A model generated the notes under the pieces. It was not told the origin of the DNA. It saw only the letters and a list, made by a program, of their open reading frames with translations, and searched no databases. A stretch of 18,965 bases of DNA. Origin: a virus. Its lineage: Duplodnaviria > Heunggongvirae > Uroviricota > Caudoviricetes. Location of the stretch: IMG/VR virus record IMGVR_UViG_2537561689_000013; one strand, given 5' to 3'. Shown here in pieces: positions 13,282-13,435 of this stretch (its first letter is position 1; each line of letters begins with the position of its first letter). The position numbers and the translations under genes are program-made.

Positions 13282-13357
13282 GCCGACTTAGCTCAGCAGG
13301 CAGAGCAACTGACTTGTAATCAGTAGGTCACCAGTTCGATTCCGGTAGTCGGCACCA
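13282..13357 (+). tRNA. tRNA-Thr (anticodon UGU)
   Basis: 76-nt cloverleaf folded by hand: acceptor GCCGACT/AGTCGGC, D-arm GCTC...GAGC, anticodon stem ACTGA/TCAGT with loop CTTGTAA, T-loop TTCGATT, 3' CCA. Resembles host thrU from memory. Confidence 0.88.
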
Positions 13358-13360
13358 TAT

Positions 13361-13435
13361 GCGGGTATCGTATAATGGCTATTACCTCAGCCTTCCAAGC
13401 TGATGATGCGGGTTCGATTCCCGCTACCCGCTCCA
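13361..13435 (+). tRNA. tRNA-Gly (anticodon UCC)
   Basis: 75-nt cloverleaf: acceptor GCGGGTA/TACCCGC, anticodon stem TCAGC/GCTGA with loop CTTCCAA, T-loop TTCGATT, 3' CCA. Near-identical to host glyT from memory. Separated from the Thr tRNA by 3 nt. Confidence 0.88.

Follow-up and report, generated by a model that had tools for sequence, protein, structure and literature searches.

Why should a relative of phage lambda carry tRNA genes that duplicate functions its host already has? This question is raised by a stretch of 18,965 nucleotides (nt) from a virus of the Caudoviricetes (IMG/VR record IMGVR_UViG_2537561689_000013; "the window" below means this whole stretch), in which an initial annotation, made from the sequence alone, had placed genes for tRNA-Thr(UGU) and tRNA-Gly(UCC) in tandem, 3 nt apart. 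ARAGORN was run on the whole window and called exactly two tRNA genes, both of which were also detected with the Rfam tRNA model RF00005 (gathering score 29 bits):

13282-13357, + strand, tRNA-Thr(UGU): ARAGORN anticodon tgt; RF00005 69.8 bits, E 1e-13
13361-13435, + strand, tRNA-Gly(UCC): ARAGORN anticodon tcc; RF00005 65.6 bits, E 1.5e-12

Coordinates and anticodons agreed exactly with those first described. The gap is the trinucleotide TAT (13358-13360), the 3' CCA is encoded in both genes, and each anticodon is unambiguous within a 7-nt loop. Chance or mis-called tRNAs were ruled out because the scores are far above the threshold and the two tools concur. These are very probably functional, host-derived tRNA genes in a conserved cassette. 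As an explanation of the locus as a whole, we consider it fairly probable that this is a genuine and intact cassette, a common lambdoid module of the interval from Q/pR' (late antiterminator and promoter) to the lysis genes, which acts by supplying minor isoacceptors.

The cassette lies downstream of the antiterminator gene Q and of a pR'/tR' homolog and upstream of the lysis genes. Its immediate slot, described initially as running from a methyltransferase gene to the lysis cassette, was confirmed on both flanks by Pfam and RefSeq:

9614-9976, + strand, antiterminator Q gene: Pfam Phage_antitermQ, E 1.3e-43; RefSeq "antiterminator Q family protein"
12067-13113, + strand, DNA methyltransferase gene, directly upstream of the cassette: Pfam N6_N4_Mtase, E 5e-45; PADLOC MTase_II, E 2.5e-151
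14183-14575, + strand, first holin gene, the downstream boundary of the slot: RefSeq "putative holin"; Pfam Phage_holin_8, E 5e-22

A 601-nt query that spans the cassette (13100-13700) matched the chromosomes of several human enterotoxigenic Escherichia coli (ETEC) isolates at 100% identity, and in genomes that match this query throughout, the RefSeq annotation has the Thr/Gly pair in the same position. The gene order in RefSeq is ParA, hokD, DUF968, RusA, antiterminator Q, a hypothetical protein of 427 amino acids (aa) on the opposite strand, a 72-aa open reading frame (ORF), the DNA methyltransferase, tRNA-Thr, tRNA-Gly, two holins and a GH108 endolysin (the lysis genes, from 14183), iss/bor, ylcI, nohD, and a terminase gene split by an IS66-family element. 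The cassette belongs to a lambdoid prophage that is defective, has had its left arm replaced, and resides in an ETEC chromosome. A PADLOC search for a defence gene beside the tRNAs returned the methyltransferase only.

The Thr-Gly pair with its 3-nt junction was found in at least 120 IMG/VR contigs and, with a junction BLAST query (at least 80% covered), in 870 of 5,426 complete E. coli genomes (16%). It is also present in the deposited phages SerU-LTIIb, phi467 (downstream of stx), PhiR47_1, JLK-2012, and vB_EcoS-683R6. Because the same junction recurs across these viral contigs and bacterial genomes, we regard the cassette as an old and mobile module, which is probably held host-like by purifying selection together with gene conversion. 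The pair is already known in the sense that it is annotated in RefSeq and GenBank phage records; a published description of the lambdoid Thr-Gly cassette was not found in the searchable literature.

Arrays and alleles were counted over the approximately 125 junction-bearing copies among the matches listed, and arrays were typed by ARAGORN. Thr-Gly stood alone in 56 contigs, as in the window, which lacks ileZ and arg tRNAs, followed by Met(CAU)-Lys(UUU)-Thr-Gly in 40, Met(CAU)-Arg(UCU)-Thr-Gly in 14, and other arrays in a few. The "Met" tRNA of these arrays is 96-100% identical to ileZ of phage 933W while the tRNA in second place shares 78-79% identity with argN, and such an ileZ and argN-like tRNA precede Thr-Gly in 54 of the approximately 125 contigs. 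This pairing with ileZ-like and argN-like tRNAs makes Thr-Gly a module of the ileZ-argN-argO array family. The idea that it represents an alternative to ileZ-argN-argO thus holds in that different tRNAs occupy the same slot, but not as a strict alternative, since the two sets co-occur.

The commonest Thr allele is identical to K-12 thrU (74 of the approximately 125 copies), followed by the U16C plus U20C allele of the window (24 copies), and a few copies carry U16C or U20C alone. Among the Gly genes, 55 copies are identical to glyT and 36 carry the U6:A67 pair found in the window. Thr and Gly alleles occur in free combination whatever the array type, a pattern suggestive of recombination or gene conversion. 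The tRNAs remain at least 97% conserved, in contrast to 75-85% identity in the downstream spacer and to upstream regions that in many cases cannot be aligned. This difference between the tRNAs and their diverging flanks argues for purifying selection on the tRNAs.

Some arrays carry re-coded or unusual members. In SerU-LTIIb (L002, 1122-1197) a thrU scaffold with G35C, and also G24A and A31G, reads Arg(UCU), and in two IMG/VR contigs (L083 and L126) a thrU scaffold with G35U reads Lys(UUU); all three anticodon-switched copies are still followed by Gly at the 3-nt junction. The argN-like "Lys(UUU)" tRNA of PhiR47_1 (L004, 3927-4003) and approximately 40 IMG/VR contigs has the anticodon loop CCUUUAA, with C in place of the near-universal U33, and an unusual acceptor end. 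It may be non-standard or non-functional.

The resemblance to host thrU and glyT, first noticed by eye, was borne out by alignment. Specifically, the Thr gene is identical to K-12 thrU at 74 of 76 positions, with both differences (U16C and U20C) in the D-loop, and the Gly gene is identical to K-12 glyT at 73 of 75, the sole change being a compensatory replacement of the acceptor-stem pair C6:G67 by U6:A67. The positions that we take to be identity elements for threonyl-tRNA synthetase (ThrRS; G1:C72, C2:G71, G35, and U36) and those presumably recognized by glycyl-tRNA synthetase (GlyRS; G1:C72, C2:G71, G3:C70, C35, C36, and U73) are unchanged.

On the one hand, the host operon thrU-tyrU-glyT-thrT-tufB yields mature tRNAs that are near-identical to those of the cassette, with the same anticodons and an encoded CCA. 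On the other hand, thrU and glyT are separated in that operon by 209 nt (including tyrU) instead of 3 nt, and the cassette lies inside a prophage without tyrU, thrT, tufB, or the 116-nt spacer. Its promoter, leader, and trailer are unrelated to those of the operon, in which the thrU leader is approximately 10 nt long. Homology to the host ends at the mature tRNA boundaries, and BLAST matches to chromosomes span the tRNAs only. Since chromosomal matches are limited in this way and the flanks are unrelated, the tRNAs are of host type without a recent capture of the operon at the DNA level. The suggestion that part of a host tRNA operon had been captured is therefore retained for the kind of tRNA and abandoned for a local or recent event; recent capture of the operon with its flanks was ruled out, given the unrelated host promoter, leader, and spacer.

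A donor species with C16 and C20 in its chromosomal thrU was also sought, and no convincing one was found in a scan of species-representative genomes. In that scan the C16/C20 allele occurred only in E. coli/Shigella prophage arrays, Rahnella bruchi, Candidatus Dasytiphilus, and several Mycoplasma-group genomes, Ca. Dasytiphilus being the only case seen within a chromosomal thrU-tyrU-glyT-thrT operon. Since Ca. Dasytiphilus has it in its chromosomal thrU and Mycoplasma in tRNA-Thr genes, C16/C20 is a tolerated natural variant.

Four further elements bear on how the cassette could be expressed:

11510-11602, + strand, homolog of the 933W-type pR'/qut/tR' region, aligned to the annotated 933W stretch with 81% column identity
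13193-13220, + strand, putative sigma-70 promoter of the cassette: -35 TTGAAA (13193-13198), 16-nt spacer, -10 TAATAT (13215-13220)
13229-13278, + strand, structured 5' leader: GGUUCC (13229-13234) pairs with GGAACC (13273-13278), and AGGGG (13237-13241) with CUCUU (13266-13270)
13436-14182, + strand, conserved non-coding spacer of approximately 750 nt from tRNA-Gly to the holin gene

A possible promoter around 13192-13220 had been part of the initial annotation, and comparison with relatives upheld it. Taken alone, TTGAAA-16-TAATAT matches the consensus at 9 of 12 positions, and promoter-like sites in the region are no more numerous than in shuffled sequence. Although unremarkable by itself, the pattern TTGnnn-16-TAnnnT recurs, 85-98 nt before tRNA-Thr and with divergent spacers, in 37 of the 43 distinct upstream sequences compared, whereas mononucleotide shuffles gave 3.7 on average and never more than 9. 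A dedicated promoter for the cassette is thus plausible on comparative sequence grounds. The best promoter score of the scan belonged to TATAAT at 13371-13376, which was dropped as it sits within the D-arm of tRNA-Gly.

The leader is predicted by minimum free energy folding to form a hairpin, in which the two helices flank tandem G.A/A.G. Across 22 divergent leaders, 90% of cells are paired, versus 27-72% when the partner is slid, and there is covariation (one pair is CG in 10, UA in 8, and UG in 3; another is GC in 8, GU in 8, and AU in 4). The structured leader is unrelated to the short host thrU leader. Rfam searches for a known RNA family in the leader or the 750-nt spacer, run both with the gathering cut-off and by E-value, gave only sub-threshold, chance-level matches (mir-983, STnc100, and suhB).

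The spacer shows its 75-85% identity in approximately 35 of 125 related viral contigs, and 67 loci contain a sub-region of it, at about 13536-13660. A small ORF was not conserved in it among 12 homologs. The terminator scan called two sites in the spacer, each with a T-run (13794-13813 and 14143-14158), which are the first strong ones after the tRNAs. The same scan called 11575-11596 within the pR'/tR' homolog, which keeps TAAGAGTGGTTAC and the hairpin AACCCGCCG..CGGGTTTTTTTGTACC of 933W. From this likeness we infer that 11510-11602 functions as a late promoter with tR'.

How might these elements work together? A Thr-Gly precursor would be made constitutively from the cassette's own sigma-70 promoter, and this transcription would end before the holin gene. 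In an intact relative, after induction, Q-antiterminated read-through from pR' at approximately 11.5 kb may add further precursor, as Q-modified transcription from the pR' homolog would run on through the methyltransferase gene and the tRNAs into the lysis genes. Both tRNAs would then be freed by RNase P and 3' trimming and could be charged by host ThrRS and GlyRS, given that the presumed identity positions are unchanged. The outcome would be an extra gene copy of two minor isoacceptors, decoding ACA (and ACG) and GGA (and GGG). Because the terminase gene is split by the IS66-family element and the prophage is defective, only the effect on the lysogen can operate in the window. That the main role of the cassette is such a dosage supply for the decoding of ACA and GGA is, in our judgement, at least an even prospect.

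Codon usage was compared between the genes of the homologous annotated prophage locus and 38 K-12 genes from one region. In the prophage genes, ACA made up 0.21 of Thr codons versus 0.11 in K-12 (p 4.5e-5) and GGA made up 0.17 of Gly codons versus 0.09 (p 2.4e-4). Demand from the late genes had been proposed initially, and this was borne out in part. The pooled shares were raised (ACA+ACG 0.50 versus 0.36; GGA+GGG 0.36 versus 0.21), as were those of GGA (0.16) and ACG (0.38), but late-gene ACA alone was not enriched (0.12 versus 0.11, p 0.6). The 3' half of thrU has a median of one place per genome, which fits a prophage that adds a second gene copy. Overall, support for a codon-supply role is moderate.

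Several observations weigh against supply as the main role, beginning with the absence of ACA enrichment in the late genes. AGA, AGG, and ATA are far more enriched in the early genes, and the prophage has no ileZ or arg tRNAs; codon demand alone therefore fails to predict which tRNAs are carried. The host comparison set of 38 genes from one region is small, and this strain, with its defective prophage, could draw no advantage from better translation of the late genes. Finally, tRNA-Thr(UGU) is a prime target of two defence nucleases, which provides another selective reason for its carriage.

The two nucleases are P2 Old and PARIS AriB. The cassette could replace tRNA-Thr(UGU), and perhaps tRNA-Gly(UCC), destroyed by either of them, with U16C and U20C conferring partial resistance; we treat this explanation as tentative and on the unlikely side. 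P2 Old, the effector of P2-lambda interference and a classic system against lambda, owes its toxicity chiefly to amputation of the anticodon arm of host tRNA-ThrU, from which phage tRNA-Thr(UGU) can rescue (PMC12445682). Old requires paired CNG motifs and A37, and the rescuing phage tRNA-Thr has an altered CNG motif (28-30/40-42) and a shortened anticodon stem (PMC12445682). As to AriB, C16 is present in T5 tRNAs, and cleavage of tRNA-Lys was significantly impaired by U16C (PMC12409363). The window Thr has C16 as T5 tRNAs do, the effect on AriB having been shown for tRNA-Lys only, and sister arrays place Lys(UUU) or Asn(GUU) beside Thr-Gly. The sequences of both glyT and the window Gly show paired CNG motifs (CAG/CUG) together with A37.

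There are also four sister Thr(UGU) alleles with G42U/C plus U43C, three in IMG/VR contigs (L015, L020, and L038) and one in JLK-2012 (L006, 3984-4059). Their backgrounds differ, but in each the pairs 28:42 and 27:43 are broken, one CNG motif is lost, and the anticodon stem becomes shorter. Changes of this type have been shown to give resistance to P2 Old (PMC12445682).

The Thr allele of the window itself does not follow this pattern. Its anticodon arm is that of thrU (ACUGA/UCAGU), with both CNG motifs and all five base pairs intact, and the AriB site U36-A-A-U-C40|A41 is the same as in the host. Arm swaps showed that the anticodon arm determines resistance to Old, and host thrU protected little or not at all when over-expressed (PMC12445682). 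Given that published result and an arm identical to that of thrU, the window Thr is expected to be sensitive to Old. The tRNA-Thr6 and tRNA-Thr21 of Govande et al. 2025 and the T5 tRNA-Thr of the PARIS work are likewise phage-borne and have the same anticodon, and U16C is shared with T5. However, they have an altered CNG motif, a shortened stem, or changes around 39-41, whereas the arm of the window Thr equals that of the sensitive host thrU. Moreover, the commonest phage Thr allele among the matches listed is identical to host thrU, and C16/C20, found as well in Ca. Dasytiphilus and Mycoplasma, falls at tolerant and variable positions of the D-loop. Drift at these two positions is an adequate explanation for the Thr allele of the window.

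The literature examined yielded no nuclease with tRNA-Gly(UCC) as its target. The toxSAS FaRel2 targets tRNA-Gly and tRNA-Thr via acceptor base pairs 1, 2, 4, and 5 (PMC11559606). These determinants are unchanged in both cassette tRNAs, so evasion of FaRel2 is not suggested. A broader proposal is that the thrU-derived lambdoid tRNA forms an evolving toolkit against Toprim nucleases, in which U16C/U20C would blunt AriB and the 42/43 alleles would resist Old. We consider this quite unlikely.

The pair might instead be a functionless passenger, that is, host-like DNA in a decaying prophage with no selected role, and this we hold to be highly improbable. The prophage is indeed defective, with its terminase broken and its left arm replaced, and the tRNAs duplicate host functions. 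Yet the tRNAs stay conserved while their flanks diverge, the sole stem change is compensatory, the promoter and leader helix are conserved across lineages, and the module persists in the inducible phages PhiR47_1, phi467, and JLK-2012. Phages often integrate into tRNA genes, and the SerU-LTIIb record ends at a partial tRNA-Ser, but the chance that host tRNA ends duplicated by integration left attachment-site debris here is close to nil, and such a duplication was ruled out, as both genes are full length with intact cloverleaves and lie internally, between methyltransferase and holin, at the same internal position in many phages.

Returning to supply of isoacceptors from a conserved cassette, the closest known system is the ileZ-argN-argO cassette of 933W. 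It occupies the same slot, with Q/pR'/tR' before it and cargo and lysis genes after it, and a short promoter, pT, is annotated directly upstream of its tRNAs, as the cassette in the window has a predicted promoter of its own. 933W keeps a C-terminal coding remnant of a methyltransferase just upstream of ileZ, where the window has the full gene; this retained remnant argues that the methylase-then-tRNA order is ancestral. The two cassettes differ in specificity (Ile, Arg, and Arg in 933W; Thr(UGU) and Gly(UCC) in the window) and in origin, since the tRNAs of the window are host-derived and those of 933W are novel (thrU is 69% identical to argO and 64% to argN). They also differ in their leaders (approximately 61 nt and structured, versus approximately 8 nt in 933W) and in the first strong terminator, which lies approximately 360 nt past the cassette in the window and directly after the last tRNA in 933W.

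Few phage tRNAs are as common as tRNA-Thr(UGU), which has 678 matching phage records and forms part of the tRNA sets of virulent coliphages (T4-like, T5-like, and the jumbo Asteriusvirus). These copies are mostly 78-87% identical to the host gene, in contrast to 97% for the cassette, and they belong to large tRNA clusters of lytic phages. T4 has genes for Thr(UGU), Gly(UCC), Arg(UCU), and Ile(CAU) and in this way shares all four specificities found in the Met/Ile-Arg-Thr-Gly arrays of lambdoid phages. The jumbo phage BF17 (L151, 301-454) has two tandem tRNA-Thr(UGU) genes. The body of the first is identical to host thrU and its CCA is not encoded; the second is diverged, with an anticodon stem AUCGC/GCGAU and no CNG at 28-30.

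Other features of the prophage were recorded alongside the cassette. The 427-aa protein gene (10183-11466, - strand) lies antisense between Q and the pR' homolog and, given that the pR'-qut-tR' homolog lies at 11510-11602, appears to have been inserted there. Its product had no match in Pfam or PADLOC and no known defence family, and it falls in PHROG 5990 (unknown function), with more than 6,000 homologs of approximately 430 aa across Gammaproteobacteria. Its AlphaFold model (pLDDT, the predicted local distance difference test, 84; pTM, the predicted template modelling score, 0.80) matches 20S proteasome beta subunits (Foldseek E approximately 3e-4, target TM 0.5-0.6), with a proteasome-like core split by long helical insertions. 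An invariant Thr2 right after Met1 is a candidate N-terminal nucleophile. Further to the left, a sok antitoxin RNA (7432-7606, + strand; Rfam 110 bits) overlaps hokD, the type I toxin locus of the prophage. A three-gene block (4556-6587, - strand) at the left edge of the remnant encodes a ParA-family ATPase followed by 168-aa and 231-aa proteins in PHROG families of unknown function.

As a gene call, the pair is routine, being already present in RefSeq and in several deposited phages, and tRNA cassettes between Q and lysis have been known since 933W. What is added here is that Thr-Gly is a frequent and mobile module of the ileZ-argN-argO array family, with a conserved promoter and structured leader. 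Its tRNA-Thr(UGU) is the target of P2 Old and PARIS AriB, and its alleles span a range from host-identical to resistance-type changes. On the same thrU scaffold, one-base substitutions in the anticodon have in addition produced Arg(UCU) and Lys(UUU) versions. A target of Old and PARIS is thus placed within natural lambda relatives as a directly testable allele series. If that series is not functional, the cassette would illustrate how tRNA dosage can be raised for rare codons that end in A. If it is functional, temperate phages would be tuning a borrowed host tRNA against tRNA-cutting immunity, and natural relatives of lambda would already answer P2-lambda interference and offer a natural genetic handle on it.

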